Assembly (NCBI GenBank): GCA_044341105.1
Contig: JBIISI010000003.1
Location: 1 to 50,918, forward strand
Reading direction: 5' to 3'
From: Rickettsiales bacterium
GTDB lineage: Bacteria > Pseudomonadota > Alphaproteobacteria > Rickettsiales > UBA3002
Length of the DNA: 50,918 bases
Shown: positions 1 through 44,133 of the stretch, piece after piece
Layout: each line of letters starts with the position of its first letter
How positions within the stretch are numbered: position 1 is the first letter of the stretch
Notes under the pieces: generated by a model
What the model was told of the DNA's origin: nothing
Seen by the model: the letters and a program-made list of their open reading frames with translations, nothing else
The model's database searches: none
Position numbers and translations under genes: made by a program

Positions 1-483
1 GGGGATAAGCCCCAGTAATGGATAAAGCAGCGAGAGCGCCATTTCGCGTACAAAAAGGTCGCGCGCGTGCTCCGGCTGAGAGATTTGAACGGTAAAGTGG
101 TCATCGTGAACACCGTAGGTGCGCCAGCGCTTTGCCTCATGCTCAATCACTTGAAGCCCGCTTTTGCTTTGGTAAGGAAAGTTCATATCGCTATGCGAAA
201 TGTAGGCAAGGCGATGCTTCCTATCCCAGATTTGAACAAGGTAATCCTGCTCTTGCTTCAACTTCATACTCAAGCCGGGCCCAATAATTCCTTTCCTGCT
301 GTCGCTCAACCTGAGCGCGCCTAACTGGCTTTTCAGCGTCGCCGCCAATTCCATCATATTGCGATCATACAGCTCGTTGATCTCATCGGAGGCATGCACA
401 TAGGTAATACCGGTGACGATAAGCGAACCCGTCGCCAAAGCGATAATCAGCGAAACCAGTAAATAGCGGCGAATCGATCTCAT
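1..483 (-). CDS. Sensor histidine kinase, QseC/PmrB-like (N-terminal part; runs off window)
   Basis: Manual translation MRSIRRYLLVSLIIALATGSLIVTGITYVHASDEINELYDR shows a TM helix plus the E..ELxD periplasmic motif. ATGA overlap with the response regulator stop. Confidence 0.85.
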   Translation of the reverse strand, partial: MRSIRRYLLVSLIIALATGSLIVTGITYVHASDEINELYDRNMMELAATLKSQLGALRLSDSRKGIIGPGLSMKLKQEQDYLVQIWDRKHRLAYISHSDMNFPYQSKSGLQVIEHEAKRWRTYGVHDDHFTVQISQPEHARDLFVREMALSLLYPLLGLIP

Positions 484-1136
484 TTGGCCACCATGTAGCC
501 GATGCCGCGAATGTTATGAATAATATCCGAGCCTAGTTTCTTACGGACATTGTGAATCTGTACTTCAACCGCGTTACTGCTCACTTCTTCATTCCAGCCA
601 TACAGGCGATCTTCCAGCTCCGCACGCGACAATACTTTCCCCGGAACTTCCATAAGTGCAAACATCAGGGCGTATTCGCGCGCAGACAGAACGAGTTCCT
701 TGCCCCTGTAGGTCAGTTCTTTGGTGGTGGTGTTCAAGGCGATTGCGCCCGACCGAATCACGGATTCGGCATTGCCCGTATTGCGCCGCAAGAGTACGCG
801 GATACGTGCCTCGACTTCTTCTAATGCAAATGGTTTGACCAGGTAATCATCGGCCCCGAGGTTAAGCCCGAGCACTTTGTCTGCCACACGGTCGCGGGCC
901 GTCAAGACCAATACCGGGGTTTTATTATGTGCCCGGCGCATCGACTGTAGCACTTCCAGCCCCCCACGCCTGGGCAGGCCAAGGTCAAGCAAGACGAGAT
1001 GATACGTCGCATTCTTAAGACTTTCTTCGCCTGTTTCGCCATCACGCGCCCAATCAACCGCATAGCCGCCTGCCTTCAGCGCATGGCTTAAACCCTCGCC
1101 TATCATTTTATCATCTTCGATCAACAGAATGCGCAT
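480..1136 (-). CDS. OmpR-family response regulator, QseB/PmrA(BasR)-like
   Basis: MRILLIEDD receiver, LDLGLP phospho-Asp, GADDYLVKPF, winged helix SNAVEVQIHNVRKKLG..RGIGY. Confidence 0.95.
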   Translation of the reverse strand: MRILLIEDDKMIGEGLSHALKAGGYAVDWARDGETGEESLKNATYHLVLLDLGLPRRGGLEVLQSMRRAHNKTPVLVLTARDRVADKVLGLNLGADDYLVKPFALEEVEARIRVLLRRNTGNAESVIRSGAIALNTTTKELTYRGKELVLSAREYALMFALMEVPGKVLSRAELEDRLYGWNEEVSSNAVEVQIHNVRKKLGSDIIHNIRGIGYMVAK

Positions 1137-1172
1137 GGATATCCTTTAAGAACTTCCCATTCACGGTTGCGC

Positions 1173-1205
1173 ATCATAGGAAGCCAGACTTACGCCAAAC
1201 TTAGC
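1173..1205 (-). promoter_or_regulatory. PmrA/QseB-type direct-repeat box plus -10 element (probable autoregulated promoter)
   Basis: Minus strand GCTAAG-N5-CGTAAG, then 10 nt, then TATGAT, upstream of the response regulator. Confidence 0.6.
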
Positions 1206-1228
1206 ACTGAAACGGTGCCGGAATGTTT

Positions 1229-1975
1229 TCAGAATCTTTCGTTTTTCCTGTGATAGAGCCCACCATGGCTTAATAGGTAGAGCGTCAAGAAGCTGTAGCC
1301 AACAATACCTGCGAGATACGTGTCCAGTGGCGCATAGATAAAGCCTGCCACGATCGCAGCCATCATGAGCAAAGCCAATGGCGCCGCCTTTTTGCTGATA
1401 TGCAGAAGCTTGCTTGATGGTGTCTTGACATGGCTGATCATAAGCCCGGCCAAACAGGTAATGTAGATACCTGTATAGATGGAGGTCGTGGTGCTGATGG
1501 CACCTTTTAACTCTAACACAATCGGCAGGAAAATAAATACCGCTCCCGCCGGCGTCGGCATTCCGATGAAATAGTTGGTTGCAACGTTTTCCGCCCCCTC
1601 ATTATACATCACATTGAAGCGCGCCAACCTGTAGGCTCCGCCGACAAGGAAAATAAGCGTGGCCACCCAGCCGAAGAAATAAAGCCCTTTTAAATGCCAT
1701 TCATAGGCAATCAGCGCCGGCGTCACACAGAAGTTCAGAAAGTCGGCTAAGGAATCCAGCTGGGCCCCAATCGGGCTTTCCACCTTCAACCGGCGGGCAA
1801 CCTTGCCATCAATAGCATCCAAGAACGCCGCGATAAGAAGCAAGACCAACGAGTAATAAATATTTTCCCGAACGTAGCTGAAACGCAAAGCAGTTAAGCC
1901 CAGGCACATCGAGGTGAGGGTAATCGCATTCGGAATAAAGGGATAAATATATTTCAATTTCATTGGCGCTGCCAA
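1229..1975 (-). CDS. pssA: CDP-diacylglycerol--serine O-phosphatidyltransferase
   Basis: PNAIT and CDP-alcohol phosphotransferase motif DAIDGKVAR...GAQLDSLAD, RLARFN, FIGMPTPAG. Start may be 1963. Confidence 0.93.
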   Translation of the reverse strand: MAAPMKLKYIYPFIPNAITLTSMCLGLTALRFSYVRENIYYSLVLLLIAAFLDAIDGKVARRLKVESPIGAQLDSLADFLNFCVTPALIAYEWHLKGLYFFGWVATLIFLVGGAYRLARFNVMYNEGAENVATNYFIGMPTPAGAVFIFLPIVLELKGAISTTTSIYTGIYITCLAGLMISHVKTPSSKLLHISKKAAPLALLMMAAIVAGFIYAPLDTYLAGIVGYSFLTLYLLSHGGLYHRKNERF

Positions 1976-2670
1976 GTCAGTGCGGTTGCATCAAACGTTT
2001 TTGGATCAAGCGCCAACATCGTCTCGCCCCCTACCGTCACCGTGCCGATATCGACGAGTAACCGGTAATGCAGGGGAATGTACACATCGCAGCGGCTGCC
2101 AAAACGGATAATCCCATAGCGTGCACCGCCAAGCACCACCTGTCCCGGTTGTATTTCATGCACGATGCGCCGGGCGACCAGTCCGGCAATCTGGCAGAAG
2201 CCGATGGTTTCACCCTGACGATTGACCATGCTGCTGATCGTACGCTCGTTGTCGTCGCTGGCCTTATCAAGCGCTGCATTCAAGAATTTGCCCGGAACAT
2301 AGACATGGTGCGAAATCGTGCCGCTGACGGGAGTGCGGTTCACGTGCACATTGAAGACGTTCAGAAAAATAGAAACTTTGTGATACAAGGTGCCATCGCC
2401 CGTCAGCTCTTTCGGCAGCGGCGCCTGGCTGATATGGCTGATCACGCCATCGCCCGTCGCTAATACAAAACCATCTCCCTGGGGAGTGATCCGGTCTGGG
2501 TTACGAAAAAAATAAATGCAGAAAAGCAGCGCGACGACGCCCAGAAGGCCTGCATATTCCGAACAAAGAAACAATAGAGTGGCCACAATGGCAGCGGCGG
2601 CGATGAACGGTTTCCCCTTCGGATGCGTTGGGACAAACAGAACGCTTTTTATGGTCGATAAGAGATGCAT
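1960..2670 (-). CDS. psd: Phosphatidylserine decarboxylase proenzyme
   Basis: FFRNPDR, FLNVFNVHVNRTP, QIAGLVARRI and self-cleavage motif FGSRCD; adjacent to pssA. Confidence 0.95.
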   Translation of the reverse strand: MHLLSTIKSVLFVPTHPKGKPFIAAAAIVATLLFLCSEYAGLLGVVALLFCIYFFRNPDRITPQGDGFVLATGDGVISHISQAPLPKELTGDGTLYHKVSIFLNVFNVHVNRTPVSGTISHHVYVPGKFLNAALDKASDDNERTISSMVNRQGETIGFCQIAGLVARRIVHEIQPGQVVLGGARYGIIRFGSRCDVYIPLHYRLLVDIGTVTVGGETMLALDPKTFDATALTWQRQ

Positions 2671-2680
2671 CAGATCCTGA

Positions 2681-2713
2681 CTTAAGTTTCAGCTAAGAAT
2701 GTCGAGTTATACG
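2681..2713 (+). promoter_or_regulatory. PmrA-box-like site in the psd/eptA divergent intergenic region
   Basis: CTTAAG-N5-GCTAAG (2681-2697), then 10 nt, then TATACG; same geometry as the 1173-1205 site. Confidence 0.55.
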
Positions 2714-2868
2714 CGGCGATAATAACCATAGGTGCCGTATCGTATATTCGTTTTTCCCCTCATCACACAACTATAAAAGCGCTTTTCCCGATGATGTCAA
2801 AACAATGGCAACACACTGAAAAGCTGTGCTTAAATTAATTGCTTTCATTTCATTGGGATGCCCTTTCC

Positions 2869-4476
2869 ATGCTAAAAAAACTGTTCCACCCCATGCAGGT
2901 CACCAGCATGCAGCTTATTGCTCTTGTCGCATTATTCTGGATGGTATTCGCCAATTTCTCTTTGGTGGCCGCGCTGGTGCATGACTACCCCCTGACGGTA
3001 AAGAACGCGCCATTTCTTGGAACGGCCTTTCTAGGTTTCACCGCCGTTATCATCATCGTACTGAGCGTGGTTTGTATGCGCTGGACCATCAAGCCACTCC
3101 TTAGCCTGTTACTTATCTCTACGGCGATGACCGCGTATTTCATGGATACGTACCACGTGATTATTGACGACCTGATGATCCGCAACACGCTGGAAACGGA
3201 CGTGCATGAAGTAAGCGACCTGTTTAGCGTTCATATGTTGGGGTATCTTCTCCTGCTCGGGATTCTGCCGGCATGCTTCGTCTGGCGCTCGACCATTATT
3301 TTCCAACCGCTGCACCGCGAACTGCTGTCACGATTGAAATGGGTGGCTGCCCTGCTGCTTGCGGTTGGGGTGTTGTTTTTTTTACAAAGCGCCGTGATCA
3401 CATCGTTTTTCCGCGAACACAAACCGATCCGTTTTTATGCCAATCCCTCTAGTTATCTCTTTGGGTTGGCGCGTCATGTCTCCAAAGAGGTATCGGCCAT
3501 ACGGGGTGTGGCACCACTTGCAGCGTTCGGTCGCGACGCCCGAATCCCCGCGACGGATGTCCGGCGCGAACTAATCGTTATGGTAGTGGGCGAAACCACC
3601 CGTGCAGACCGGTTCTCGCTAAATGGTTACCAGAAACACACCAATCCCCTGTTAGAAAAACAGAACGTTGTCAGCTTCGCCCATGTGCAAAGCTGCGCCA
3701 CGCTCACGGCGATTTCGGTGCCATGTATCTTCTCAGGCCTCGGTGAAGAAGGCTTTACGGTTGCGAAGGCCAGGCGAAAAGAAAACATCGTGGATACATT
3801 AAACCATGCCGGTGTGCATGTGTTGTGGCGCGACAATAATTCAAGCTCGAAAGGGGTAGCGGACAGGGTAACCTACCAGGATTACCGCAGCCCTTCTGTC
3901 AACCCGGTCTGCGACGAGGAATGCCGGGATGAGGGGATGCTCGTGGGGCTTCAGGACTATGTGAACGCGCAGCCTGAAGGCGATATCCTGATCGTCCTGC
4001 ATCAAATGGGCAATCACGGGCCAGCCTATTACAAGCGCTATCCGGCATCCTTCGAGAAATTCAAACCGGTGTGCAAAACCAACGAACTTGCCGATTGCAG
4101 CCAGGATGAAATCAATAACGCTTACGACAATGCCATCCTCTACACCGATTACTTCCTCGACAAGACTATCGAGTTTCTAAAAAACAACGATGGAAAGTTC
4201 CAGGTCGCGATGCTCTATGCCGGCGATCATGGTGAATCGCTGGGAGAGAATAATATCTATCTGCACGGCCTGCCGAACTTCCTTGCCCCCGAGGCCCAGC
4301 GCCATGTCCCTATGATCCTGTGGTTGGGTAACAATTTCGAGGGAATGGATATAGCAACCGCGATGGCGAAGAAGGATCGCTCGCTCAGCCACGACAACAT
4401 CGCCCATACGCTTCTTGGATTGATGGAGATCCAAACAGGCGTGTATAAAAAAGACCTCGATTTGCTGAAGGACTGA
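2869..4476 (+). CDS. eptA: Lipid A phosphoethanolamine transferase (EptA/MCR family)
   Basis: N-terminal TM helices, VVGETTRAD, SCATLTAISVPC (catalytic Thr), HQMGNHGPAY, YDNAILYTD, DHGESLGE..YLHG. Confidence 0.95.
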   Translation: MLKKLFHPMQVTSMQLIALVALFWMVFANFSLVAALVHDYPLTVKNAPFLGTAFLGFTAVIIIVLSVVCMRWTIKPLLSLLLISTAMTAYFMDTYHVIIDDLMIRNTLETDVHEVSDLFSVHMLGYLLLLGILPACFVWRSTIIFQPLHRELLSRLKWVAALLLAVGVLFFLQSAVITSFFREHKPIRFYANPSSYLFGLARHVSKEVSAIRGVAPLAAFGRDARIPATDVRRELIVMVVGETTRADRFSLNGYQKHTNPLLEKQNVVSFAHVQSCATLTAISVPCIFSGLGEEGFTVAKARRKENIVDTLNHAGVHVLWRDNNSSSKGVADRVTYQDYRSPSVNPVCDEECRDEGMLVGLQDYVNAQPEGDILIVLHQMGNHGPAYYKRYPASFEKFKPVCKTNELADCSQDEINNAYDNAILYTDYFLDKTIEFLKNNDGKFQVAMLYAGDHGESLGENNIYLHGLPNFLAPEAQRHVPMILWLGNNFEGMDIATAMAKKDRSLSHDNIAHTLLGLMEIQTGVYKKDLDLLKD

Positions 4477-4477
4477 G

Positions 4478-4816
4478 ATGAAACGTCTTTGGTTTGCCTT
4501 TCTCTATTCCCTAAGTGGCCTTGCTGCGGCATGGCGCGATGAAGCGGCTTTCCGGCAGGAAGTGATCCTGGCTGCGGTGGTAATTCCGTGGGCCATCATT
4601 CTCGCCCCCAATAAATTATCACTGCTGCTCATGATCGGCAGTGTGCTTTTGGTGCTGGTACTAGAACTGCTGAATACGGCTGTGGAAGCATGCATCAACC
4701 GTATCGGCCCGGAAATACACCCTCTATCGAAGAAAGCCAAAGATACAGCCAGCGCAGCGGTGTTTATCGGGCTGGCCCATATGCTACTGGTCTGGAGCGT
4801 GATCCTGCTTTTTTAA
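4478..4816 (+). CDS. dgkA: Diacylglycerol kinase
   Basis: EAAFRQE, ELLNTAVEACIN, HPLSKKAKD motifs; 1 nt after eptA. Confidence 0.95.
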   Translation: MKRLWFAFLYSLSGLAAAWRDEAAFRQEVILAAVVIPWAIILAPNKLSLLLMIGSVLLVLVLELLNTAVEACINRIGPEIHPLSKKAKDTASAAVFIGLAHMLLVWSVILLF

Positions 4817-4982
4817 TGGAACGCCGGTCATCGGAGCACAAGACCGGGAAGATTCGGACTACACCTTGGTTAAGATTGCTGATTATCCAATCCAAGGTAT
4901 GGTTGCCCTATGCAAATTGCTAAAATCACCGCAGCAAGTTACAGCATTCAAACTGTTAGTTGGCTCAATGCGCCTATCACTT

Positions 4983-5651
4983 CTAGCCGATTTGCCTACT
5001 GTGCGATAACGCCGATTCTTTGATAATATCATGCAGTGCAGCAGCAGACGCATCTTGCGAAAGAACTTCTAATGCAGCATCGGTTAATACGACTTGGTGC
5101 GCTGGCTGCGTTTTCATTAACCGTAATATCTCTTTGTCTGCCTGCAATTCTGGATTCAGCTCTGTCAATAATCGCTCTGCCGCGCGTGCAAATTGTTCCG
5201 CATCTTTTCCATCTTTAAACGAATAAATGGCTCCTTCGGGAACCGTATGTCGCCCAAAACGCTTTTCATCGCCAATAGCCAAGACGGTATTTCCTTCGGA
5301 TATCTGGCAAGTTTCCCAATATGGAGTAAGTTCCATTCCTAGACACAGTTCATGATCGGCAAGCCATCTGTCTAACTCCAACTGCATCACTGGCCCGAAC
5401 CCAGATGGCGCGAACCCAGAACGGGCCAGACGCTTTATGTAGCTTTTATCCATCTGGACGAGATCGCTGATCGGAAGTTTTTTGGGGTCGTGCCCTGCCC
5501 AAACATTCTGGAGAAGATTGCGAAGACGAGTACTGAATTCTTCAAACGGTATAGGATCATCAAAGCGCGGGTCAAAAAAATTAGCCGTGTTACCCAAACG
5601 ATTAATTTTATTGGCCGCTATCTGACGATCAAAAGTCGATTGCTCTGACAT
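4983..5651 (-). CDS. Hypothetical protein
   Basis: 222 aa ORF with AAGGAG upstream; no recognisable motif. Confidence 0.6.
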   Translation of the reverse strand: MSEQSTFDRQIAANKINRLGNTANFFDPRFDDPIPFEEFSTRLRNLLQNVWAGHDPKKLPISDLVQMDKSYIKRLARSGFAPSGFGPVMQLELDRWLADHELCLGMELTPYWETCQISEGNTVLAIGDEKRFGRHTVPEGAIYSFKDGKDAEQFARAAERLLTELNPELQADKEILRLMKTQPAHQVVLTDAALEVLSQDASAAALHDIIKESALSHSRQIG

Positions 5652-5889
5652 TTGCTTCTTGCTTCTCCTTTATCTTCGTCCATCATATCATTTAATTATG
5701 TCAACATGATGAAGGCGTTCAGTAAAATTAATGACGTTAGCGCCCTTATAAGAATCGAACTGCCCAAGTACATATAAATCAATGAAAACGATTTAGCGGC
5801 CGTTTGAAATTGCTTAAAAAAACCAACCGACACGAACTCGCAACGCACTGATAATAAAGAAAAAAGAACGAAATCTCTGATTTCGTTGT

Positions 5890-5908
5890 AAATGGTGACT
5901 CTACGGGA
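5890..5908. repeat. att site (distal copy of tRNA-Glu 3' end)
   Basis: aaatggtgac-tctacggga equals 24686-24705 aaatggtgacctctacggga with a 1-nt deletion. Confidence 0.9.
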
Positions 5909-5968
5909 GGCACACCGGTCAATTAACGTATTGATTAGCACACCCAATTTGTCAACGGCGATCTTCGC

Positions 5969-5987
5969 ATGCCCCTAATTGTGCCCC
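5969..5987 (+). repeat. Integrase arm-type site (left)
   Basis: atgcccctaattgtgcccc, 18/19 identical to 24557-24575; inverted half-site taggggtat at 6026-6034. Confidence 0.7.
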
Positions 5988-6032
5988 TATTGCTGAATTG
6001 ACGTTTTTGGCTTGTTTCAGGCATATAGGGGT

Positions 6033-6638
6033 ATGAGCAAAACACCGCCGCCTAAAAAACGCAAAACCCGCCGAATGGTCGCACCATCGCTTTTTGTTCC
6101 GGTAACAAAAGAGGACAAGACATCAATGCCGTTTACCGGGGTGGAGCATGGCGAGCCAGAAGAAACCAAGCGAGAAAAGTTAGAACGGGAGCAACTAAAG
6201 CGAAAGCAGCTAGTCAGTCAATCAGCCCAAACCAATACCGAGGATATACTAAGATGGCTTCGGCAGGAAATGAATCGCCAAGAATACTCCTACGCGAAAC
6301 TTTCGGCTCTCACTGGAGTATCCGAACCAGCGATAAAATCTTGGTATAGCAAAAGCCCTACATCGCGACGGAGCCCCGGCCTTGTAGAAGTCATGAAATG
6401 TCTTCAGGCCTTAAATTTTATTCTCATCCCATCGGATGGTGTTCTGTATTTAGACGATACAGGGGACAGGTCTTGCAACCCCATCGATTGGTTTAGACAC
6501 CATCTTGCGAACCGTGAATTGCAGGATAGTGCCACAACACGAAAAACTAGCGTCTCTGAAGAGCATGCGCGCTCGAATGAAAACGCACGTCGCGCGCTTA
6601 AAATGAAAACGCATAAACCGCGCAGCCGGATATCTTAA
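6033..6638 (+). CDS. XRE/Cro-like HTH DNA-binding protein
   Basis: LRQEMNRQEYSYAKLSALTGVSEPAIKSW...SPGLVEVMKCLQALN resembles an HTH; ATG at 6033. Confidence 0.65.
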   Translation: MSKTPPPKKRKTRRMVAPSLFVPVTKEDKTSMPFTGVEHGEPEETKREKLEREQLKRKQLVSQSAQTNTEDILRWLRQEMNRQEYSYAKLSALTGVSEPAIKSWYSKSPTSRRSPGLVEVMKCLQALNFILIPSDGVLYLDDTGDRSCNPIDWFRHHLANRELQDSATTRKTSVSEEHARSNENARRALKMKTHKPRSRIS

Positions 6639-6721: not shown

Positions 6722-6955
6722 ATGCAACCACTAGAAAACAAGCCAACCGGTTACAGCAAATATATTCGGGCCAAGCAGGCTGCTGAATATCTCGGCATCC
6801 CACTCTCGACGTTCTACCAGCTAGTCTCACAGGGAGTTTTACCAAAAGCCTTCAAACTCACGGATCGTATTTCGCTTTATCGGCGGGCTGATCTGGATGC
6901 CGTTTTGGCAAACCGTAATGGGGCGAATGAAGCCCTATCTGCAACGCAACGGTAG
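6722..6955 (+). CDS. AlpA-family excisionase/regulator
   Basis: YIRAKQAAEYLGIPLSTFYQLVSQGVLPKAFKLTDRISLYRRADLD; GGAGG RBS. Confidence 0.85.
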   Translation: MQPLENKPTGYSKYIRAKQAAEYLGIPLSTFYQLVSQGVLPKAFKLTDRISLYRRADLDAVLANRNGANEALSATQR

Positions 6956-6966: not shown

Positions 6967-9525
6967 GTGGCAAAAATTGTTTCAGAACATGCCGACGTTG
7001 TGTTGAACATCGCACGCAACAGCAACAATATCGATTTGGTGCATACAAGGCCCTACAACCCAACCGTAAGCGAGTTGTTTGAGAGGCTTTCCAAGCCAAA
7101 GATCGACACCATTACGCTAGCGGAATACCTCGACCTCTCCCCGAAAGAGCGTAACAAGCATAAATCCAGCGCGGGATGGATTACAGGCGGTCGCGTGAGG
7201 AAAAACTACCGCTGCAAGAAGCACATGGGGAAAATCAGGCAGCTAATGCTCGATATCGACGGAGCGACACCCGAGTTGATCGAGGAGATTATCAGCGGCG
7301 ACACCGCATTCTCCAAGTTTGAGTGGTTTATGCACACCACGCGCTCGCATGATCCCGCCAAACCTCGCGTCCGGATTTACGTGCCGCTTCGTACCGCAGT
7401 TCCGCTAGATATCTTCGAGGCATTCGCGCGGATTACATGCACATTGCTTGCAACAGACGCACAAGCCGTCATGGATGCGGTGGACCCGGCCAGTTTTTCC
7501 GTAGCACAGCTCATGTACTTACCGACCATCAGCCGGGATCAAGAGTTCAAAAAATACCACAATAAGGGCGAGTTACTCGATTACCAAGACATCCTCGACC
7601 AATATGATGGGGACTACACCAATTTCGCTACGCTACCGCACTCATCCAAACGCGACAAAAAACATCGGACTCACATGCCCGATGGCAGCTATAAAGACCC
7701 ACGCGATAAGGAAGGTGTTGTTGGCGCATTCTGCCGGAAATGGAACATTGAGCAGGCCATGCGCGAATTCATTCCTGATGTTTATGAGCAAGACATCGGC
7801 GGTGACAGCAGCCGGTATCGTTACACAGGCTCCGACAGCATGGGCGGCGCTGTAGTGCTGGATGATGGGCAGTATCTCTATTCACATCATATCAATGCAG
7901 ACCCATGCGGCGGCGAATCCGTCAACGCCTTCGACATGGTACGTTTGCATGAATTTGGCGAACTGGATGATGATACTGATCCAGAAACCAAGATGACCAA
8001 GCTGCCATCCTACCAAGCGATGATCGAAATGCTCATGGAAATTCCTGAATTTCGTGACCAACTAGCGGAAGACCGTGTGGCGTTGGACGAATCTATCATT
8101 GACGCTTTCAAAGAACTCGACATCGAAGAAAAGGAAGATGAAGACAAAAAAATCCCGGCAGTCATGCGTTGGATGAATGAGCGGCATGCCGTGGTTGTAA
8201 ATGATGGCAACACAATCATTCTGAATTTTAAAAATGCAGAAGGCCATCTGACCTACAGCACCGCTCAAGACCTGCATATGCTCTACGCGAATAGAACTGC
8301 CACGCTGAAGACCGGAAAGCTTATGACCTACGACCGTTACTGGATGGAACACCCGAAGCGCCGTCAATATATCGGGGTGGATTTTAACCCCAATGGCGTA
8401 CCAGACGGATGGCTGAATACCTATCCCGGCTTTCCGCTTGCGCCGCGTGCAGGCGGAAACTTCAAGCGCATCCGTTGGCATCTTAAACATGTAATCTGCA
8501 ACGGTGATAAAGTGCTTTTCAAGGCGTTGATTCAGTGGTTGGCGCATATGATGCAAAAACCCGGAGAAAAACCCGGCTTTGCAGTGGTGCTCATCAGCGA
8601 AGGAAAAGGCACCGGGAAGGACACCGTAGGCCATATCGTGCACCAGATGCTGGGGCGCATGTGGACTCAAGTGCTCACCCCACGGCAGTTGCTTGGCAAC
8701 TTCAATGCGCACCTTAGCGATTGCCTGTTCATCCAAGTATCGGAGGCTATTTACCCTAAGGATAAGTCGGCGCAGGGGATGCTACAAAACCTGATTACCG
8801 AGCCGTTTCTGCCGATTGAGCGCAAGGGGAAGGATATCATGCGAGTCAGTAGTTTCCAACGCATCATGATTACCTCGAACCACCACCATGTCGTTCCAGC
8901 AAGTGCAGACGAACGGCGGTATTTCGTGCTGACCGTATCGGATCGGAAAAAACAGAACGCGGACTATTTTGACGCATTGTACGCAGAAATCGAAGATGTG
9001 AAGTCGATCCAAGCATTCATCGATTACCTCATGCATGTTGATATTTCCGACTTCGATCCGCGCAATCCGCCGAAGACCAACGCCCTTACCGAACAAAAGC
9101 TGGCGAACCTGACCGGGGTTGCCGAATGGTGGTACTACAGGCTTCAGGTGGGCCATATTCCCGGCTTCAGCAAATCCGGCAGTGGCGATGGGGGTTGCTG
9201 GGATGAGCCGGACATGTCGGAGTGGCAAGAGGGTTCTATTTCGGGCAAGAAACAAGCCCTGTACGATGATTATTGCGACCGTAATCGCCGCCGCCGCTAC
9301 GATGGCGACCCGGTAACGCCCGCAATCTTTTGGCGCGAAATGAAGAAGATGATGCCAGAGATCAAAACGGGGACCGCCCGGCAAGGGAAGACCTTTTACA
9401 AGAAGGCGACTATCGAGGGCCTTGATACCTGCCGGGCAGCATTCGCCAAGTTTATTGGCGGCAGCGTTGCGTGGGAGGGTGAACCCATGCCATGTCGCGA
9501 GATTGACCTAGAAGACCTGATTTAG
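6967..9525 (+). CDS. Primase/polymerase-helicase (AEP-like N-terminus, DUF5906/SF3-type ATPase C-terminus)
   Basis: MLDIDG, HTTRSH..PRVRIYVPL, YSHH..DPC..NAFDMVRLH; Walker A EGKGTGKD, GNFNAHL, IERKGKD, ITSNH, DERRYFV. Confidence 0.85.
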   Translation: MAKIVSEHADVVLNIARNSNNIDLVHTRPYNPTVSELFERLSKPKIDTITLAEYLDLSPKERNKHKSSAGWITGGRVRKNYRCKKHMGKIRQLMLDIDGATPELIEEIISGDTAFSKFEWFMHTTRSHDPAKPRVRIYVPLRTAVPLDIFEAFARITCTLLATDAQAVMDAVDPASFSVAQLMYLPTISRDQEFKKYHNKGELLDYQDILDQYDGDYTNFATLPHSSKRDKKHRTHMPDGSYKDPRDKEGVVGAFCRKWNIEQAMREFIPDVYEQDIGGDSSRYRYTGSDSMGGAVVLDDGQYLYSHHINADPCGGESVNAFDMVRLHEFGELDDDTDPETKMTKLPSYQAMIEMLMEIPEFRDQLAEDRVALDESIIDAFKELDIEEKEDEDKKIPAVMRWMNERHAVVVNDGNTIILNFKNAEGHLTYSTAQDLHMLYANRTATLKTGKLMTYDRYWMEHPKRRQYIGVDFNPNGVPDGWLNTYPGFPLAPRAGGNFKRIRWHLKHVICNGDKVLFKALIQWLAHMMQKPGEKPGFAVVLISEGKGTGKDTVGHIVHQMLGRMWTQVLTPRQLLGNFNAHLSDCLFIQVSEAIYPKDKSAQGMLQNLITEPFLPIERKGKDIMRVSSFQRIMITSNHHHVVPASADERRYFVLTVSDRKKQNADYFDALYAEIEDVKSIQAFIDYLMHVDISDFDPRNPPKTNALTEQKLANLTGVAEWWYYRLQVGHIPGFSKSGSGDGGCWDEPDMSEWQEGSISGKKQALYDDYCDRNRRRRYDGDPVTPAIFWREMKKMMPEIKTGTARQGKTFYKKATIEGLDTCRAAFAKFIGGSVAWEGEPMPCREIDLEDLI

Positions 9526-9837: not shown

Positions 9838-9970
9838 TGAAAGGCAGTTGTCATAAATTGCCTATTACACATGAGGTTGCCAATTCCTGCTTTCGCAATG
9901 AGTGGATTGGCAGGTGGCGGGTTTTTGACTATGGTGCAGCCAATGTTGACTGACGGGGGAGCCAAGGTTG

Positions 9971-11296
9971 GTGAATCAGCAAAAAAATAAAGGCGGGAAC
10001 GGTCCATATGTTGCGACCCTGCTGCTATGCTTGCTGCTTTTCTCAGCGCGCGTAGTGGGCCAGTTGGTGCAGCATATTTCTCCCGTCGCGTTTCTCCCTC
10101 CGTTCGAGGCATGGCAAGGCAGCGGCATGCCGTATAGCGCGCTTCTCACCATGCAGCTGGTGATTGTTGCCGCCGCCTCATTCATCATCACCCGCCTTGC
10201 GCACGGTCGCATCACCCCCAACCCAAGAACCGCAGCATGGCTTTACTGGCTCGGCATCCCGTATTTTATTGCCATGCTGGTGCGCCTGCTCCTTGGCCTT
10301 GGGCCGCTGCATGAGGCCGCATGGTTCGCCGCCAGCATTCCGGCTTTTTTCCATATAGTGCTGGCCAGCATGGTGCTCACGCTGGCGCATTATCACTCAT
10401 CACCTGCGCAGCGGCTACGGTTCCGCCAAGCGATGCGCTGGGCGGTCTATCCGGGGATCATGGGGCTGGTGGTGCTCGCCTATTATGGCCTCATCGCACA
10501 AGGGGTCAGCCCGGTCATCAGCAGCTATGTCAGCGGGCTGTTAGCAGCCATCACCATTACCATCGCTGAAATCCTTCTGCCCTACCGCGCCGAGTGGCGA
10601 CCTACGCGGCATGACATCCTGCATGACAGCATTTTCCTGTTGCTCATACAAGTGGTGCTGCCCAATGCGCTGACCCTGCTAGCGGCCATCGGCCTGCAAC
10701 ATTGGGTAGTGCAAAGCGGCATCGCGGCGGATGCATGGTGGCCGCACCATTACCCGATATGGGCACAGATGCTGCTCATGATGTTTGCTGCCGATTTCCT
10801 GCGCTACTGGTTGCACCGCGCGTTTCATACCTACCACCGCCTATGGCCGATCCATGCCGTGCATCATTCGGTGCAGAAACTCTACTGGCTGAATGTGGGG
10901 CGCTTTCACCCGCTCGACAAATCGCTCCAGTTCCTTGCCGATGTGTTGCCTTTCATTTTCCTCGGCGTGTCGCAAGAGGTGCTTACGCTCTATTTCGTCG
11001 TTTACTCGGTGAAGGGCTTCTTCCAGCACAGCAATGTTGATGTGCGGCTGGGCTGGCTGAACTATCTTATCAGCGGCCCGGAATTGCACCGCTGGCACCA
11101 CTCCAAAATCATCCGCGAATCGAACAGCAACTACGGCAACAATATCAGCGTGTGGGACTGGCTGTTCGGCACCTTCCATTACCCCAAGGCACAAGAAGTG
11201 GGCGATCTCGGCCTGTTCAACCGCCACTACCCGATGGCTTTCCTGAGCCAGATGCGCGCGCCGTTCGTACGCGGGCTGGATAAGGAGGCGAAATGA
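9971..11296 (+). CDS. Sterol desaturase/fatty acid hydroxylase family protein with extra N-terminal membrane domain
   Basis: His boxes HRAFH, HAVHH, FQHSN, HRWHH; NYGNNISVWDWLFGT. Start codon uncertain (9968 TTG or 9971 GTG). Confidence 0.9.
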   Translation: MNQQKNKGGNGPYVATLLLCLLLFSARVVGQLVQHISPVAFLPPFEAWQGSGMPYSALLTMQLVIVAAASFIITRLAHGRITPNPRTAAWLYWLGIPYFIAMLVRLLLGLGPLHEAAWFAASIPAFFHIVLASMVLTLAHYHSSPAQRLRFRQAMRWAVYPGIMGLVVLAYYGLIAQGVSPVISSYVSGLLAAITITIAEILLPYRAEWRPTRHDILHDSIFLLLIQVVLPNALTLLAAIGLQHWVVQSGIAADAWWPHHYPIWAQMLLMMFAADFLRYWLHRAFHTYHRLWPIHAVHHSVQKLYWLNVGRFHPLDKSLQFLADVLPFIFLGVSQEVLTLYFVVYSVKGFFQHSNVDVRLGWLNYLISGPELHRWHHSKIIRESNSNYGNNISVWDWLFGTFHYPKAQEVGDLGLFNRHYPMAFLSQMRAPFVRGLDKEAK

Positions 11297-12801
11297 GCCG
11301 CCTTCAACAGCTGCTGGTACGGGTCCATATGGCCAAAATAGCGCTTGGTCCGTGGGCGCGTCTGAAGCAAAGCGCACGTAATTCGGAACGCACGCAGGCA
11401 GCATTGCTGCAACGTATCCTGCACGCCAACCGCACCACGCAGTTCGGTCAAACACATCAGTTCGCTTCGCTTGGCGATACCGCAGCCTACCGTGAAGCCG
11501 TCCCCATCCATGATTATGAAGCGTTGCGCCCTTTCATCGACCGCCAGATGCAACATGGCGAACACGCGCTAACGGTAGCGCCAGTATGCCATTATTTGCT
11601 GACCAGCGGCACGACCGGCGAGCCTAAGCGTATCCCACTAACCGAAGATGCGATGCGACATCTGCGCGATTGCCAGCGGCTAGCAGCCTACAGCCATTTC
11701 CGCGAAGCCCCGTTGCTATTCTCCGGCAAGCTACTCTCTATCACCGGCGCAGGCACGGAAGGGCAGATGCCCAACGACACCCCTTATGGCTGCCTATCCG
11801 GCGTACTGTTCGATGCCATGACCCGCTTCATGAAACGCCGCGCCATCCCCTCAGCTGCTATCGGACTGGAATATCGCTACGAAGACATCGCCCGCGAGGC
11901 TGCGGCAGCACCCGATATCACCGCTGCCATTACCGCCAACCCTTCCAGCTTCCTGCGCCTGAAAGAGATCATGCTGCGCGAAGGGCTGATACCGGCAGGG
12001 CGTTTACTCGGCGATCTGTGGCCCAACCTTCACGCCATCATCACATGGACACACGGTAACTGCGCCACCTACCTACCCGCATTGCAGCGTGAGTTCCCCA
12101 ACACTGCCATTCTGGAAGCAGGATATCTCGCCAGCGAAATCTATGGCACTATTCCCGTAGGTGGCGGGCGCTGCGTTCCCAGCCTTGAGCATACCTTTTT
12201 TGAGTTCATCGCGGTCGATGCATGGGAGAGTGGAAGCGGGGAAACCCAACTGCTGCACACGCTGGAGCAAGGCCACCGCTATTACGTCATCACCACGACC
12301 GAGAGCGGCCTTTACCGCTATTTCATGCATGACATCGTGGAAGTGGACGGCATGTTCGAGAACACGCCCTGCCTACGTTTTGTGCAGAAGGGAAAGGGCG
12401 TGACCAGCCTCACCGGTGAGAAGCTTTACGAGAGCCAATTGCTGCACGCACTCAAAACCATTCGGGGAGATGACGCGAACGCGCCCTTCTTCCTCGCCGT
12501 CGCTCATAACGATCCAGCCCATTACCGGCTCTATATCGAGAGCGCGCACACTGCTCCTGACATGGCCACACAGCTGGATGATGCGCTGGGCGCACTAAAT
12601 ATCGAATACAAGGCAAAGCGCGATAGCGGGCGGCTGCATCCGCTTTCCATCGCCTTCCTGAGCAATGGCGCAGGCGATGCTTACCGCCAGCACTGTATTG
12701 CACAGGGCCAACGCGATGCCCAATGGAAGCTGGTGCGGCTACAATACGCCCACGAATGCCCCTTCGATTTCACTCCCTTCCTGCGTAAGGATGCGTCATG
12801 A
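11293..12801 (+). CDS. GH3-family acyl acid-amido synthetase
   Basis: AVPIHDYEALRPFI, LTSGTTGEPKRIP, YLASE, TTESGLYRYFMHD, GEKLYE; ATGA overlap. Confidence 0.9.
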   Translation: MSRLQQLLVRVHMAKIALGPWARLKQSARNSERTQAALLQRILHANRTTQFGQTHQFASLGDTAAYREAVPIHDYEALRPFIDRQMQHGEHALTVAPVCHYLLTSGTTGEPKRIPLTEDAMRHLRDCQRLAAYSHFREAPLLFSGKLLSITGAGTEGQMPNDTPYGCLSGVLFDAMTRFMKRRAIPSAAIGLEYRYEDIAREAAAAPDITAAITANPSSFLRLKEIMLREGLIPAGRLLGDLWPNLHAIITWTHGNCATYLPALQREFPNTAILEAGYLASEIYGTIPVGGGRCVPSLEHTFFEFIAVDAWESGSGETQLLHTLEQGHRYYVITTTESGLYRYFMHDIVEVDGMFENTPCLRFVQKGKGVTSLTGEKLYESQLLHALKTIRGDDANAPFFLAVAHNDPAHYRLYIESAHTAPDMATQLDDALGALNIEYKAKRDSGRLHPLSIAFLSNGAGDAYRQHCIAQGQRDAQWKLVRLQYAHECPFDFTPFLRKDAS

Positions 12802-13892
12802 CCCTGCAACTCACCATGGCCCCGTTGCATATCCCCTTTCGCGCAGCATTCCGGCATGCAGGCGCGGAACGCGCGGAAACAGAAACGGTTATCGTTACCG
12901 CCCGCCGTGGTGGATTGGAAGGCGTAGGCGAAGGGTGCCCGCGCAGCTATGTCAGCGGCGAGTCCATCGCCAGTGCGTTGGCATTTTTTGAACAACATCA
13001 CGCTACGATCTCGCAATTATCGACACTGGATAACGTTCGCCACTTTACCCAACAGTTCCAGCAAGAGATTGATGCAAACCCGGCAGCATGGTGCGCGGTG
13101 GAACTTGCCTTGCTCGACCTGCTTGGCAAGGAGCAGCAGCTTCCTATCGAGGCGTTGCTTTCCCTACCGCCGATAACCCAGCCATGCCACTATTCCGCCG
13201 TGCTCAGCGCGGGCTCGGCAGATGGCTTCGCCAAGCAACTGGCGCAATATCAGGCGCAGGGCTTTACGCAATATAAAATCAAACTCTCCGGCGACGCCGC
13301 GCTCGATGCCGCTTATGTTGCGCATCTACGTGCAGCAAACATCCCCCTATCGCACGTGCGGGCCGATGCCAATCGTCTCTGGCCTGATGCCATATCCGCC
13401 ATCGCTCACCTCGCTGCATTGGATTACCCATTCTGGGCGCTTGAAGACCCGCTACATGCCATTAATACGGACGCACTTACCGCCATCGTCCACGCCCGCG
13501 ATTGCCGCATCATCATCGATGAGCATTTCCTACGCCTCGACCAGTTCGCTACGCTTGCTCCCCATGGCCCATGGATCATCAATCTCCGCATCTCGAAAAT
13601 GGGTGGTTTGCTGCGCAGCATGGCGATCATCCAGCACGCGGCTAATGCAGGTATTCCACTCATCATCGGCGCGCAAGTTGGCGAAACCAGTATCCTCACG
13701 CGTGCCGCCATTTGTGTTGCACAGGCAGCTGGAACTTCCCTGCTAGCCCAAGAAGGCGCGTTCGGAAACTTACTACTAGCAAACGATCCTTGCGACCCGT
13801 CACTCACGTTCGGCCCGCGCGGCATTCTCTCACCGCATCCCGCTTTTAGTACGCCGGGAATGGGCATAAATTGGCAACCGGAGGCCCTATGA
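12798..13892 (+). CDS. Enolase-superfamily enzyme (MLE/epimerase-like subgroup)
   Basis: GVGEGCPR, ELALLDL, KIK, DAN, LEDP, IIDE, RISKMGG, GAQVGET; ATGA overlap. Confidence 0.88.
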   Translation: MTLQLTMAPLHIPFRAAFRHAGAERAETETVIVTARRGGLEGVGEGCPRSYVSGESIASALAFFEQHHATISQLSTLDNVRHFTQQFQQEIDANPAAWCAVELALLDLLGKEQQLPIEALLSLPPITQPCHYSAVLSAGSADGFAKQLAQYQAQGFTQYKIKLSGDAALDAAYVAHLRAANIPLSHVRADANRLWPDAISAIAHLAALDYPFWALEDPLHAINTDALTAIVHARDCRIIIDEHFLRLDQFATLAPHGPWIINLRISKMGGLLRSMAIIQHAANAGIPLIIGAQVGETSILTRAAICVAQAAGTSLLAQEGAFGNLLLANDPCDPSLTFGPRGILSPHPAFSTPGMGINWQPEAL

Positions 13893-14545
13893 AAAAGTTC
13901 AGTTTTCTTCACCACTCTTTCATTGCTATGGCGCTGCTCTTACTTGCTGCATGTGGTGATGCGCCGCGCGGCCCGGCATTTTCCTATGATGGCAAAGAGT
14001 TGGAGCTTAAGCTGGAAGGCGGCAAATATCTTACCTTCACCGATGGCCCCTGCGACCAAGGATTTGACGGATGCGTCATTCACCAATTCAGAGGCACCTT
14101 TGCCAGAGACCAGTTTTATTTCGTTCATCACCAATACTACGAGGGCGGCAAGTACATGCTGTATTCTTATAAAAGTGGCAACAGAACGATTATCTACGGC
14201 GAGCCACATCTTTCTCCGCAAGAGAACCTCATTGCAACGGCAATGGGTGATGAAATGAATGACGATGGCACTGGCATACGACTTTTTGAAATCGCTAACG
14301 GCGAAGCAAAAGAACTCTTCCATTATAAGCCAAACGGCTACGCCCTTTACCGCTTTGACAAATGGATCAACAATAATGAGGCCGCCATTGAACTATACAC
14401 GATGTGCAGAGATAATGGGCGCAACGATTCGCTCACCATGCCGGTGCACCTAAGAAACACCCCAACCGGTTGGCAACTAGACCAAGGCATCGGCGAAGCG
14501 TGCATTCAATCCACGCGGCAACCTAAGCCTAGCGTAAGCCCGTAA
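13889..14545 (+). CDS. Lipoprotein, unknown function
   Basis: MKKFSFLHHSFIAMALLLLAAC lipobox; GGAGG RBS; ATGA overlap with enolase stop. Confidence 0.75.
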   Translation: MKKFSFLHHSFIAMALLLLAACGDAPRGPAFSYDGKELELKLEGGKYLTFTDGPCDQGFDGCVIHQFRGTFARDQFYFVHHQYYEGGKYMLYSYKSGNRTIIYGEPHLSPQENLIATAMGDEMNDDGTGIRLFEIANGEAKELFHYKPNGYALYRFDKWINNNEAAIELYTMCRDNGRNDSLTMPVHLRNTPTGWQLDQGIGEACIQSTRQPKPSVSP

Positions 14546-15635
14546 GTAGCCCGGCGGGTGGGACAGCATCGGTGAGGGCCAACTTGCCGCGTGTAACAGA
14601 CGTTGCAACCAATGTTGGGCGTTTTGCACCCCAGCTTGCAGATTCCCTTAGCAGCACGATGCCATCGTCGGTCCTACAATCCGTCTGCCAGTAATCCGAC
14701 ACACCGACAGCCATGTTATAATCACGGCATGATTCGCCTAAAACCTCCCGCGTTTCTTCAGGCTTAATCAGTCTTCCAGCTTCTCGCCCAGTTCGTTCCA
14801 CGCGCTTTATCTCGGCGCGCTTAAACTGGCCTTCAGGCGTTCTAATCACCTGAATGGAAATGCCCTCACCGTCGTACGTTTGGATACGATGCCTCTGGTT
14901 TTGGGATTCGGTCATTTTGTATGCGCCGAACCGCTTGATATGCAGCACATCGGTAATGGCCTGCTCATTGGGCGAAGATTGCAGCAGCACTTCGTCATTT
15001 GGCCCCTCCTTGCTGTCGGACCATTCATCCCACGCATTGAGTTCCAGCAAATCCGTTGGCACCACCAAGTCTTCGCGTTTCACGGTGCTTCTATCGATGG
15101 AAATCGTCTCCGAATGTTGGAGTTCAGTAGTCGCGTTACTGAACACTTTCTGCCACAGCAGTACACCATCCGCCGTGAGGCAACTCTCCTGCCTAATACC
15201 GGTTGTTCCGTATGGAACTTCCCATACGCGGCACGACTCCCCTAATCCCGTCCCTACCCTCTCTGTCGGGTGGAATGTATATTGCTCACTCTCCGTAGGG
15301 CCAATGATAGAAAGATGGTCATAGCGACCATCGGGCAGCACCGCATAGCTGTAAGAAAGGCCGGTTTTAAGGTCTGCAATGACGATGCCTTTTTTATCGT
15401 TACGCGTAGTCTCCTCACGTATCCGGTCACCCGCCCGCATGACCTTAATCGTCGATTTCTCCAGCTTATTCACGACCGTGATAGTATATTCTCCCTTTAT
15501 AGGCGCTGCATATCGCGTCCAACCCGGCATGATAAATGTTGCAGAAGAGGCAGCAGCCTGTGCAGCACTGCTTATTAAAATGACAGCAGCTACCGTTGCA
15601 ATTTTACGCATACTAATTGTAGATATTGCGATCAT
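14529..15635 (-). CDS. Exported beta-rich protein with internal domain duplication
   Basis: Signal peptide (AAQA); GESCRVWE...SCLTADGVLL repeated as GESCRDYN...DCRTDDGIVLL. Confidence 0.75.
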   Translation of the reverse strand: MIAISTISMRKIATVAAVILISSAAQAAASSATFIMPGWTRYAAPIKGEYTITVVNKLEKSTIKVMRAGDRIREETTRNDKKGIVIADLKTGLSYSYAVLPDGRYDHLSIIGPTESEQYTFHPTERVGTGLGESCRVWEVPYGTTGIRQESCLTADGVLLWQKVFSNATTELQHSETISIDRSTVKREDLVVPTDLLELNAWDEWSDSKEGPNDEVLLQSSPNEQAITDVLHIKRFGAYKMTESQNQRHRIQTYDGEGISIQVIRTPEGQFKRAEIKRVERTGREAGRLIKPEETREVLGESCRDYNMAVGVSDYWQTDCRTDDGIVLLRESASWGAKRPTLVATSVTRGKLALTDAVPPAGLLTGLR

Positions 15636-16081
15636 TGCTTGCCCTTCTTAGGCCTACATTCTTGGTATAGCTTGGCATAGGCTACTACCGCAGCATCAGC
15701 AGAGCAGCGAGCTTCTTCGTCACCACGATACAGCTTACAATCCCAATGTTCGGGTAATCCGTAGAAACGGTCGCGATCTTCAGTGCTACCAGTCTTTCTT
15801 ATTATGGAATGTGGACGGCCACGCACGTACTCAAGTACACGCCCGGAAAGAAACTGCTGACCATTTTTCTCGATGATTTGGTCAACGCTGAAATCCGTAT
15901 GTTTGGGGAATACGACTACCTCCCCCGACTCGGCATATGGTTTCGTTACATCCGGCTCACTAAACACGCGCGCGTCATCAACATCGGAGGAGCAGCTAAG
16001 ATGGTAATTACCCTCTACTGCCGCGCTTGCAGCTACAGAAAACCCCAAGACACAAGCTATAACGATCCCCCACAACTTCAT
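15632..16081 (-). CDS. Small exported Cys-containing protein
   Basis: MKLWGIVIACVLGFSVAASA signal peptide from ATG 16081. Confidence 0.7.
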   Translation of the reverse strand: MKLWGIVIACVLGFSVAASAAVEGNYHLSCSSDVDDARVFSEPDVTKPYAESGEVVVFPKHTDFSVDQIIEKNGQQFLSGRVLEYVRGRPHSIIRKTGSTEDRDRFYGLPEHWDCKLYRGDEEARCSADAAVVAYAKLYQECRPKKGKQ

Positions 16082-16604: not shown

Positions 16605-16605
16605 C

Positions 16606-17549: not shown

Positions 17550-17558
17550 ACACTCACA

Positions 17559-21939: not shown

Positions 21940-21973
21940 AGGCTGTTCTACAACTCGGAAACATCCCTTTTTC

Positions 21974-22002
21974 TTTACTTTTTTAACGGACTTCAGTAGC
22001 TT
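21974..22002 (+). promoter_or_regulatory. Sigma70-like promoter
   Basis: TTTACT-N17-TAGCTT just upstream of the hairpin at 22009. Confidence 0.45.
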
Positions 22003-22008
22003 GATATC

Positions 22009-22158: not shown

Positions 22159-22210
22159 TCCCATACTAGCGAGGGATGCTGGTCCGTTTAACGACGAAAC
22201 CGGGGATGCT

Positions 22211-22672: not shown

Positions 22673-22684
22673 GCAGGAGGCAAT

Positions 22685-23062: not shown

Positions 23063-23071
23063 GTATTAGCG

Positions 23072-44104: not shown

Positions 44105-44133
44105 CCCGCCTCCCTTTAGAAGGACATAAGAAT

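Follow-up and report, generated by a model that had tools for sequence, protein, structure and literature searches.

A predicted phosphoethanolamine–lipid A cassette with linked phosphatidylethanolamine synthesis genes on an integrated island of a Rickettsiales bacterium

Six genes at the left end of the window

The window analyzed here is a stretch of 50,918 nucleotides (nt) from contig JBIISI010000003.1 (assembly GCA_044341105.1) of a Rickettsiales bacterium. Its first part encodes a module that would combine a lipid A–modifying transferase with enzymes making the lipid donor of that transferase. The module consists of six open reading frames (ORFs) within 1–4816, all at the coordinates given beforehand in an ORF listing. 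In order of transcription, the minus strand carries the genes for Psd, a short-type phosphatidylserine decarboxylase proenzyme (2670–1960); PssA, a type II phosphatidylserine synthase belonging to the cytidine diphosphate (CDP)-alcohol phosphatidyltransferases (1963–1229); an OmpR-family response regulator resembling PmrA and QseB (1136–480); and the N-terminal part of a QseC/PmrB-like sensor histidine kinase (483–1), which is cut by the window edge. The plus strand carries the genes for an EptA-type phosphoethanolamine–lipid A transferase of 535 amino acids (aa; 2869–4476) and for DgkA, a prokaryotic diacylglycerol kinase of 112 aa (4478–4816). Pfam families are matched above the gathering score by five of the six ORFs, the exception being the sensor fragment. 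A preliminary description, made from the sequence alone, had reported six genes around a divergent region and had named them sensor/regulator, PssA, Psd, EptA and DgkA; the arrangement agrees with the ORF coordinates, and the identities agree with the Pfam and NCBIfam matches and with six relatives of the kinase.

The psd-pssA pair is located between the two-component system genes and eptA, which are known to work together. The stop codon of psd overlaps the start codon of pssA in an ATGA at 1960–1963, an identical overlap joins the regulator stop to the sensor start at 480–483, and dgkA starts one base after the eptA stop. Gaps of 92 nt and 198 nt separate pssA from the regulator gene and psd from the eptA ATG, respectively. 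For two genes, the mechanically called ORF is longer than the likely gene. That of eptA starts at an in-frame TTG at 2839 (545 aa), and the likely true start is the ATG at 2869, whose 535-aa product corresponds to database protein P0001 at 100% coverage; that of pssA spans 1229–1975 (248 aa), and the likely true start is the ATG at 1963, giving the 244-aa form found as database protein P0121.

EptA has the two-domain organization of its family, with PF08019 (EptA_B_N) at residues 68–216 and PF00884 (Sulfatase) at residues 246–530 of the 545-aa ORF. Its motifs GETTRAD (241), SCATLTAIS (275), HQMGNHGP (378), DHGESLGE (453) and YLHG (464) align with those of MCR-1, and the full-length MCR-1 structure 9nww is matched at 417 bits with the catalytic motifs aligned. 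We take the threonine in SCATLTAIS to be the catalytic nucleophile and the motifs containing glutamate, aspartate and histidine to be metal-binding. EptA passes the generic phosphoethanolamine–lipid A transferase model NF028537 (611.7 bits vs a cut-off of 500), misses the E. coli EptA equivalog PRK11598 (475.4 bits vs 660) and remains below the cut-offs of all named MCR families in NCBIfam, from MCR-1 to MCR-13 (at most 441 bits vs cut-offs of at least 1075). Its best MCR scores are 440.9 bits for MCR-6 (cut-off 1235) and 426.3 bits for MCR-1 (cut-off 1100).

Sequence comparison within a plasmid collection gives a similar picture. EptA is 43.3% identical to the product of a Pseudoalteromonas plasmid gene, 41.9% to MCR-1.1 (over 96% of the protein), 39.0% to MCR-5.3, 38.0% to MCR-8.1, 34.2% to MCR-9.1, 33.5% to MCR-10.1, 33.0% to MCR-3.1 and 32.1% to MCR-4.3. 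Close relatives of EptA are absent from the plasmids (at most 43.3%) and phages (at most 37.8%) of the collections searched. In a quick IQ-TREE phylogeny of 68 rows (the window protein, 47 database matches, 12 of the 44 genome-borne loci described below, seven MCR families and a Pantoea EptA), MCR-1 is sister to a broad 59-row clade holding window EptA, and MCR-3, MCR-4, MCR-9 and MCR-10 fall on the outgroup side. This phylogeny against the MCR enzymes groups the protein with the MCR-1 side and outside the named MCR families. By these sequence measures, window EptA is an EptA-type enzyme and a member of no named MCR family. It probably decorates lipid A with phosphoethanolamine, and we infer from its sequence that the cassette could give polymyxin resistance.

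A different acceptor would change this assignment. If EptA acted on the 3-deoxy-D-manno-oct-2-ulosonic acid (Kdo) or heptose of the lipopolysaccharide core, on a periplasmic glycan or on a surface protein, the cassette would not be a module for lipid A or polymyxins. For this enzyme superfamily, the sequence does not reveal which acceptor is used, and the scores below PRK11598 and below every MCR cut-off are compatible with such an activity. However, the generic lipid A transferase model is passed, the EptA and MCR models score 324–475 bits compared with 174.7 bits for EptB and 79.6 bits for CptA, and the tree groups the window protein with MCR-1 and EptA-type enzymes. We therefore consider another acceptor very improbable.

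The lipid enzymes encoded beside EptA are recognized by their families. PssA matches PF01066 (CDP-OH_P_transf) at 82.8 bits, and its best-scoring NCBIfam model is pssA, ahead of the models for archaetidylserine, phosphatidylcholine and phosphatidylglycerophosphate synthases; the CDP-alcohol motif D-x2-D-G-x2-A-R...G-x3-D-x3-D is present at residues 53–78 of the 248-aa ORF. Psd matches PF02666 (PS_Dcarbxylase) at 124 bits over profile positions 3–197 of 198 and carries FGSR at residue 190, which is presumably the Gly-Ser self-cleavage site. DgkA matches PF01219 (DAGK_prokar) at 110.7 bits, well above the gathering score of 22.3, over profile positions 2–102 of 102. No close relative of PssA was found in the plasmid/chromid collection, where proteins from Rhodobacterales, Methylobacterium and similar taxa are at most 44% identical. 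As judged from these alignments, the nearest relatives of PssA and Psd are not typical high-GC alphaproteobacterial PssA proteins.

The regulator contains the Pfam domains Response_reg and Trans_reg_C. Its best NCBIfam models are PmrA (244.8 bits, cut-off 330) and QseB (232.9 bits, cut-off 345), so that it is below both equivalog cut-offs, and it is 49% identical to the qseB-like product encoded beside mcr-9.1 on pW17-1. The sensor ORF (161 aa) covers a first transmembrane segment, a periplasmic sensor domain and the start of a second transmembrane segment, and by itself it has no family match in Pfam or NCBIfam. A full-library phmmer search returned 408 relatives, however, and in the six best full-length ones (446–458 aa) the first 159–165 residues align with residues 1–161 of the ORF. 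All six contain HisKA and HATPase_c domains and score best on QseC (212–250 bits vs a cut-off of 475). The identity of the sensor is thus supported by homology, because its six best full-length relatives are all QseC/PmrB-like kinases, and its own kinase core lies outside the window.

Island setting and linkage among relatives

The module is part of a horizontally acquired island integrated at a tRNA gene. The first approximately 24.7 kb of the window have a guanine-plus-cytosine (GC) content of approximately 50%, compared with approximately 64% in the remainder, and the change coincides with a tRNA-Glu(UUC) gene on the minus strand (24689–24763; ARAGORN and Rfam), where GC jumps from approximately 0.50–0.56 to approximately 0.64–0.70. 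At the right end of the island, facing the 3ʹ end of this tRNA gene (the integration site), is the gene for a tyrosine integrase of the P4 type that has an arm-binding domain (23322–24530, minus strand; Pfam Arm-DNA-bind_3, Phage_int_M and Phage_integrase; PHROG 1). Toward the module lie genes for an AlpA/excisionase-like small DNA-binding protein (6722–6955, plus strand; PHROG 66, "excisionase and transcriptional regulator," E = 1.1e-7) and a primase-polymerase/helicase (6967–9525, plus strand). The latter matches Pfam DUF5906 and the helicase and primase families PHROG 256/9765/1156, is 28–35% identical to phage primases and would provide replication functions to an element that is either integrative or similar to a phage satellite.

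Base composition separates the module from its host. The module genes have a GC of 0.49–0.54 and a GC at third codon positions (GC3) of 0.58–0.64, similar to the neighboring primase gene, whereas 11 host core genes (recJ, glpX, hom, an aminotransferase gene, argC, rpsI, rplM, pstB, pstA, tspO and phoR) range over 0.58–0.68 and 0.73–0.86, respectively. The lower-GC DNA noted in the preliminary description is therefore real. The host part has housekeeping genes, and the 46 kb of the window beyond the module contain no second copy of any module gene. Since psd-pssA lie on an island of approximately 50% GC at tRNA-Glu, beside an integrase and in a host of approximately 64% GC, they are not the vertically inherited copies of the host. 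No direct repeat of the tRNA-Glu 3ʹ end occurs in 1–24688, which places the left end of the island outside the window and its length at 24.7 kb or more; the missing repeat is no argument against an island, since the far border probably lies beyond the window start. In Rfam, the tRNA is the only match over the whole window.

Closer relatives of the module proteins exist in a large protein database, where identities reach 61–67% for EptA, 65–81% for PssA and 66–78% for DgkA. Linkage among them was judged by a proxy in which proteins whose clusters' longest contigs have an identical nt size are taken as sharing a contig. The comparison covered the first 59 EptA, 98 PssA and 56 DgkA matches, with 119 non-self matches listed for each protein. 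Among the matches compared, 15 contig sizes are common to EptA and PssA, 23 to EptA and DgkA, and 12 to all three proteins (4684, 8222, 10910, 11371, 11398, 11943, 12605, 12962, 12969, 23088, 263011 and 580195 nt). Sharing is concentrated in the EptA matches P0002–P0022 (61–67% identity), 14 of which (14/21) share a contig size with a PssA match, 12 of the sizes being also in the DgkA list. Thirteen credible EptA–PssA pairs remain after the reservations given below, mostly with DgkA; ten are on contigs of at most 13 kb, and several of the linked contigs are only 4.7–13 kb long.

The linked proteins also form clades. In the EptA tree, the window protein belongs to a 22-row clade (Shimodaira–Hasegawa-like approximate likelihood ratio test [SH-aLRT] support of 96) that holds all 14 PssA-linked rows, whereas linkage is absent from all 46 rows outside it. 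In a PssA tree of 110 rows, the window protein is in a 28-row clade (support 99) whose other 27 rows comprise 13 with linkage to EptA and others on contigs too short for linkage to be judged. Members of the linked clade are 61–67% (EptA) and 71–78% (PssA) identical to the window proteins. Moreover, EptA and PssA diverge together (Mantel r = 0.72, p = 1e-4, 14 pairs), as do EptA and DgkA (r = 0.76, p = 3e-4, 13 pairs). From these comparisons, eptA-dgkA-pssA seems to be inherited together as a unit within a single uncultured clade and is absent outside it.

Two further features of these contigs were observed. The contig sizes of the relatives cluster at 10.9–13.0 kb (10910, 11371, 11384, 11398, 11915, 11943, 11956, 12605, 12799, 12962 and 12969 nt), with no contig of a relative between 13 and 23 kb among the matches listed; the cluster could reflect a discrete mobile element of approximately 12 kb or an assembly effect. 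Separately, one contig of 1,764,673 nt holds two PssA paralogues, P0146 and P0193, which are 74% and 62% identical to window PssA and fall in different PssA subclades; no close EptA is assigned to this contig among the 119 listed EptA matches.

A putative phosphatidylethanolamine cycle and its alternatives

The genes suggest a mobile, sensor-controlled phosphoethanolamine–lipid A cassette with donor resupply and by-product recycling, in which a cycle of phosphatidylethanolamine (PE) would be closed via the host enzyme CdsA; we hold this reading with moderate confidence. The QseC/PmrB-like kinase and the PmrA/QseB-like regulator would switch on the two divergent operons. EptA would then move phosphoethanolamine from PE to lipid A and lower the negative charge of the cell surface, the route by which tolerance of the EptA/MCR type to polymyxins and cationic peptides arises. 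The diacylglycerol left by EptA would be converted to phosphatidic acid by DgkA, predicted to be translationally coupled to EptA; host CdsA would convert phosphatidic acid to CDP-diacylglycerol; and the PssA and Psd of the cassette, likewise predicted to be translationally coupled, would convert CDP-diacylglycerol back to PE. All of these biochemical steps are drawn from homology and established pathway knowledge. As the cassette would hold three of the four donor-regenerating steps, it would be expected to soften the loss of PE as well as the accumulation of diacylglycerol. It might also function in hosts with little or no PE, a possibility put forward in the preliminary description.

Published work describes the same chemistry. 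According to passages of PMC10285318 and PMC12372871, the phosphoethanolamine transferred by EptA and MCR enzymes comes from PE, the diacylglycerol left behind is converted by DgkA to phosphatidic acid, and CdsA, PssA and Psd rebuild PE from the latter. Further passages of PMC12372871 report that expression of cdsA, pssA and psd rises in E. coli that produces MCR-1, that a pssA mutant with MCR-1 loses colistin tolerance unless fed PE and that over-expression of pssA or psd raises tolerance.

Several observations weigh against the proposed cycle. At the level of gene identity, both donor enzymes narrowly miss their equivalog cut-offs, PssA with 101.6 bits on TIGR00473 pssA (cut-off 107) and Psd with 244.2 bits on NF003679 (cut-off 252), its best NCBIfam equivalog. 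The operon model is affected by the region between psd and eptA (2671–2868), which is presumed to hold both promoters. No sigma-70-like promoter consensus is found there, and a promoter and terminator scan of 1–6100 gave nothing above the shuffled background. Of the divergent promoter region put forward in the preliminary description, the roughly 200-nt divergent intergenic region thus stands, whereas the scan found no sigma-70-like consensus to support a promoter. A search with the a priori PmrA-box pattern YTTAAK-N5-YTTAAK, allowing up to two mismatches, found 15 matches in the window with 15.2 expected and is therefore uninformative.

Other observations concern linkage. A scan of a species-representative genome collection with EptA as the query gave 44 loci with EptA relatives, all at most 53% identical, from Desulfobulbaceae, Sulfuricurvum, Gammaproteobacteria and others. 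In none of the 44 is a PssA or Psd homologue found near eptA in the fetched flanks (tblastn, E ≤ 1e-5), nor in all six-frame ORFs with the PssA profile and Psd phmmer at E ≤ 1. Only two loci (L025 and L026) have dgkA directly downstream of eptA; an OmpR-type regulator is near eptA in 15 of the 44. Because the nearest genome-borne relatives are without linked pssA or psd, donor resupply is no general need of EptA. Within the database comparison, the linkage proxy consists of matching contig sizes and does not display gene order in the relatives. A 2025-nt match between EptA and PssA was discarded as a coincidence, since a contig of this length is too short for both proteins, and the 580195-nt contig pairs an EptA of the clade with a PssA of a different PssA clade; when this pair is included, the EptA–PssA correlation drops to r = 0.53 (p = 0.02). 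The linkage is accordingly limited to one clade, in which eptA-pssA-dgkA recurs in 13 relatives by the proxy, and is absent at all 44 of the nearest genome-borne loci. The interpretation given in the preliminary description is partly supported. Most of the refuting conditions that it set turn out in its favor, psd-pssA having the composition of the island and the eptA-pssA-dgkA linkage recurring in a discrete clade.

This distribution invites the explanation that psd-pssA is simply the housekeeping PE operon of the donor lineage, which hitch-hiked beside eptA-dgkA and is functionally unconnected with EptA. In alphaproteobacteria, psd and pssA usually form an operon, with a short-type Psd gene followed by a type II PssA gene in coupled translation, as in the window. 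In addition, the sister group of the window's PssA clade is on contigs of 0.85–1.76 Mb, that is, it represents chromosomal copies (one of them labeled "Rickettsiales bacterium" by one source), and the 44 EptA relatives have no such neighbors. However, the window copy differs from the housekeeping operon in lying on a foreign island with eptA-dgkA and in encoding a PssA at most 44% identical to plasmid and chromid PssA. The combination has been kept across a clade at 61–67% (EptA) and 71–78% (PssA) identity with correlated divergence and on many short contigs, and it occurs in a foreign host on an island with an integrase. Hitch-hiking is further disfavored by the position of psd-pssA, which are inserted between the two-component system genes and eptA and whose stop and start codons overlap, and by experiments in which PE supply limits MCR-1 function in E. 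coli (passages of PMC12372871). On this evidence, uncoupled hitch-hiking is unlikely.

PssA and Psd might also act in parallel with EptA, by raising bulk zwitterionic PE and thereby altering surface charge or peptide susceptibility, rather than chiefly by feeding EptA. Gene content and the logic of regulation would be the same as in the proposed cycle, and a second putative membrane-lipid operon on the island (OlsE-like and GH3/OlsH-like, 9968–14545) suggests broader membrane remodeling. The coupling of DgkA to EptA, and its co-inheritance with EptA and PssA, nevertheless fits a closed substrate cycle better. Although the two modes of action are not mutually exclusive, a chiefly parallel role seems decidedly unlikely.

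Comparison with known systems places the predicted donor-resupply cassette among, but apart from, characterized transferase contexts. A two-component system commonly accompanies canonical eptA, in the same operon or next to it, as stated in passages of PMC10285318. Chromosomal systems of the pmrCAB or eptA-basRS type share with the window an EptA-type transferase gene beside a PmrA/QseB-like regulator and a QseC/PmrB-like kinase. In the window, however, the two-component system is parted from eptA by psd-pssA and divergently transcribed, the regulator is below the PmrA and QseB equivalog cut-offs, and the whole unit is on an integrated island. MCR-1 (in the context mcr-1-pap2) is the closest named resistance enzyme, at 41.9% identity and sister to the broad clade with window EptA, yet the window protein scores 426 bits against its cut-off of 1100, has no pap2 neighbor and is not on an Enterobacterales plasmid or transposon.

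Two mobile contexts resemble parts of the module. In mcr-3-dgkA, a diacylglycerol kinase gene directly follows the transferase gene (mcr-3.1 on pPN150), as the preliminary description had stated, but window EptA is only 33.0% identical to MCR-3.1 and in another part of the tree, and the mcr-3 context is without PE-synthesis genes or a linked two-component system. An association with dgkA is listed for mcr-3, mcr-7 and mcr-8 in passages of PMC10285318. The link of mcr-9 to qseBC given in that description likewise proved correct, mcr-9.1 being followed by wbuC and qseC/qseB-like genes. This context shares with the window a mobile transferase gene linked to a QseBC-like two-component system; unlike it, the window module has no wbuC, and its EptA shares 34.2% identity with MCR-9.1. 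Within the 10.6 kb of mcr-9 context examined, neither dgkA nor pssA nor psd is present.

Accessory genes of MCR-like contexts, as enumerated in passages of PMC10285318, comprise two-component systems, TetR-type, AraC-type and YebC-type regulators, pap2 and dgkA. The word "phosphatidylserine" is absent from the main text of that survey, and full-text literature searches found no paper with pssA or psd adjoining a phosphoethanolamine transferase gene. A viral auxiliary role for pssA has been reported from ocean viromes, in the passages concerned without a link to eptA (PMC11360552). The cassette thus appears to be a known resistance-type module, here on an integrative element, to which donor synthesis has been added. 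This combination seems to be without a published precedent.

A natural and conserved mobile cassette with both PE-synthesis genes would be independent evolutionary evidence that envelope modification of this kind is limited, or made costly, by the supply of the donor and the recycling of diacylglycerol; this has so far been deduced from MCR-1 experiments in E. coli (passages of PMC12372871). The cassette would also be a test system for whether resupply lowers the fitness cost of a transferase or frees transferases from the lipid make-up of the host. Environmental integrative elements would, in this case, carry more elaborate versions of a resistance-type function than clinical mcr contexts do. 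The clustering of the relatives' contig sizes at 10.9–13.0 kb, together with the layout of the window, provides a lead to a wider and more doubtful proposal, which we offer tentatively. The cassette may be cargo of integrative elements of approximately 12 kb that circulate among uncultured bacteria and comprise an integrase, the excisionase-like gene, the primase-helicase, sensor and regulator, psd-pssA and eptA-dgkA. Needing only CDP-diacylglycerol and serine from the host, such elements might install lipid A decoration and cationic-peptide tolerance whatever the native PE, with a smaller fitness cost than that of a transferase gene alone.

Candidate regulatory sites and other genes of the window

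Two TAAG direct repeats with 11-bp spacing are candidate regulator sites. One is at 1189–1204 on the minus strand, 53–68 nt upstream of the regulator start codon. The other is at 2682–2697 on the plus strand, directed toward eptA and 11–27 nt from the psd start codon, a position so near this codon that it is awkward for an activator site; it fits the a priori PmrA-box pattern with two mismatches. The pattern BTAAG-N6-BTAAG has three matches in the window compared with 0.24 expected, but it was defined post hoc from these two sites, so the repeats are a lead only. The third exact match (14523–14538, plus strand) is at the convergent 3ʹ ends of the ORFs at 13871–14545 and 14529–15635.

Between the lipid module and the excisionase and primase genes are two divergent ORFs (4983–5651, minus strand, and 6012–6638, plus strand) with a lower GC3 (0.43–0.46). 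Neither matches a family in Pfam, NCBIfam, PHROG or PADLOC, and for the ORF at 4983–5651, the ESM Atlas results were uninformative, with feature scores of at most 0.81 and structural TM scores of at most 0.43. Five consecutive ORFs of 368, 166, 160, 184 and 173 aa (14529–18322, minus strand) and three ORFs at 21920–23467 (plus strand) match no Pfam or PADLOC family and in PHROG give weak matches of unknown function or none.

The second putative lipid operon (9968–14545, plus strand) has four genes and, at 0.58, a higher GC than the island has elsewhere. One product is a fatty-acid-hydroxylase protein with an N-terminal membrane extension of approximately 150 aa, whose best NCBIfam match is OlsE, an ornithine lipid hydroxylase (178 bits vs a cut-off of 475), and another is a GH3-family ligase, whose best match is OlsH, a lyso-ornithine lipid synthetase (96 bits vs 620), described in PMC12493201. 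The other two products are an enolase-superfamily racemase/epimerase-like protein and a putative lipoprotein. This operon is possibly a second membrane-lipid module, of an aminolipid type.

The island also carries a defense system, since two adjoining genes at 18440–21939 (plus strand) match OloA (355 bits) and OloB (691 bits) of the Olokun anti-phage system in PADLOC. In the host part of the window, the gene at 44077–44619 (plus strand) encodes ribosomal protein L21, whose C-terminal tail is rich in lysine and alanine and has a weak match to the histone-like protein HC2.

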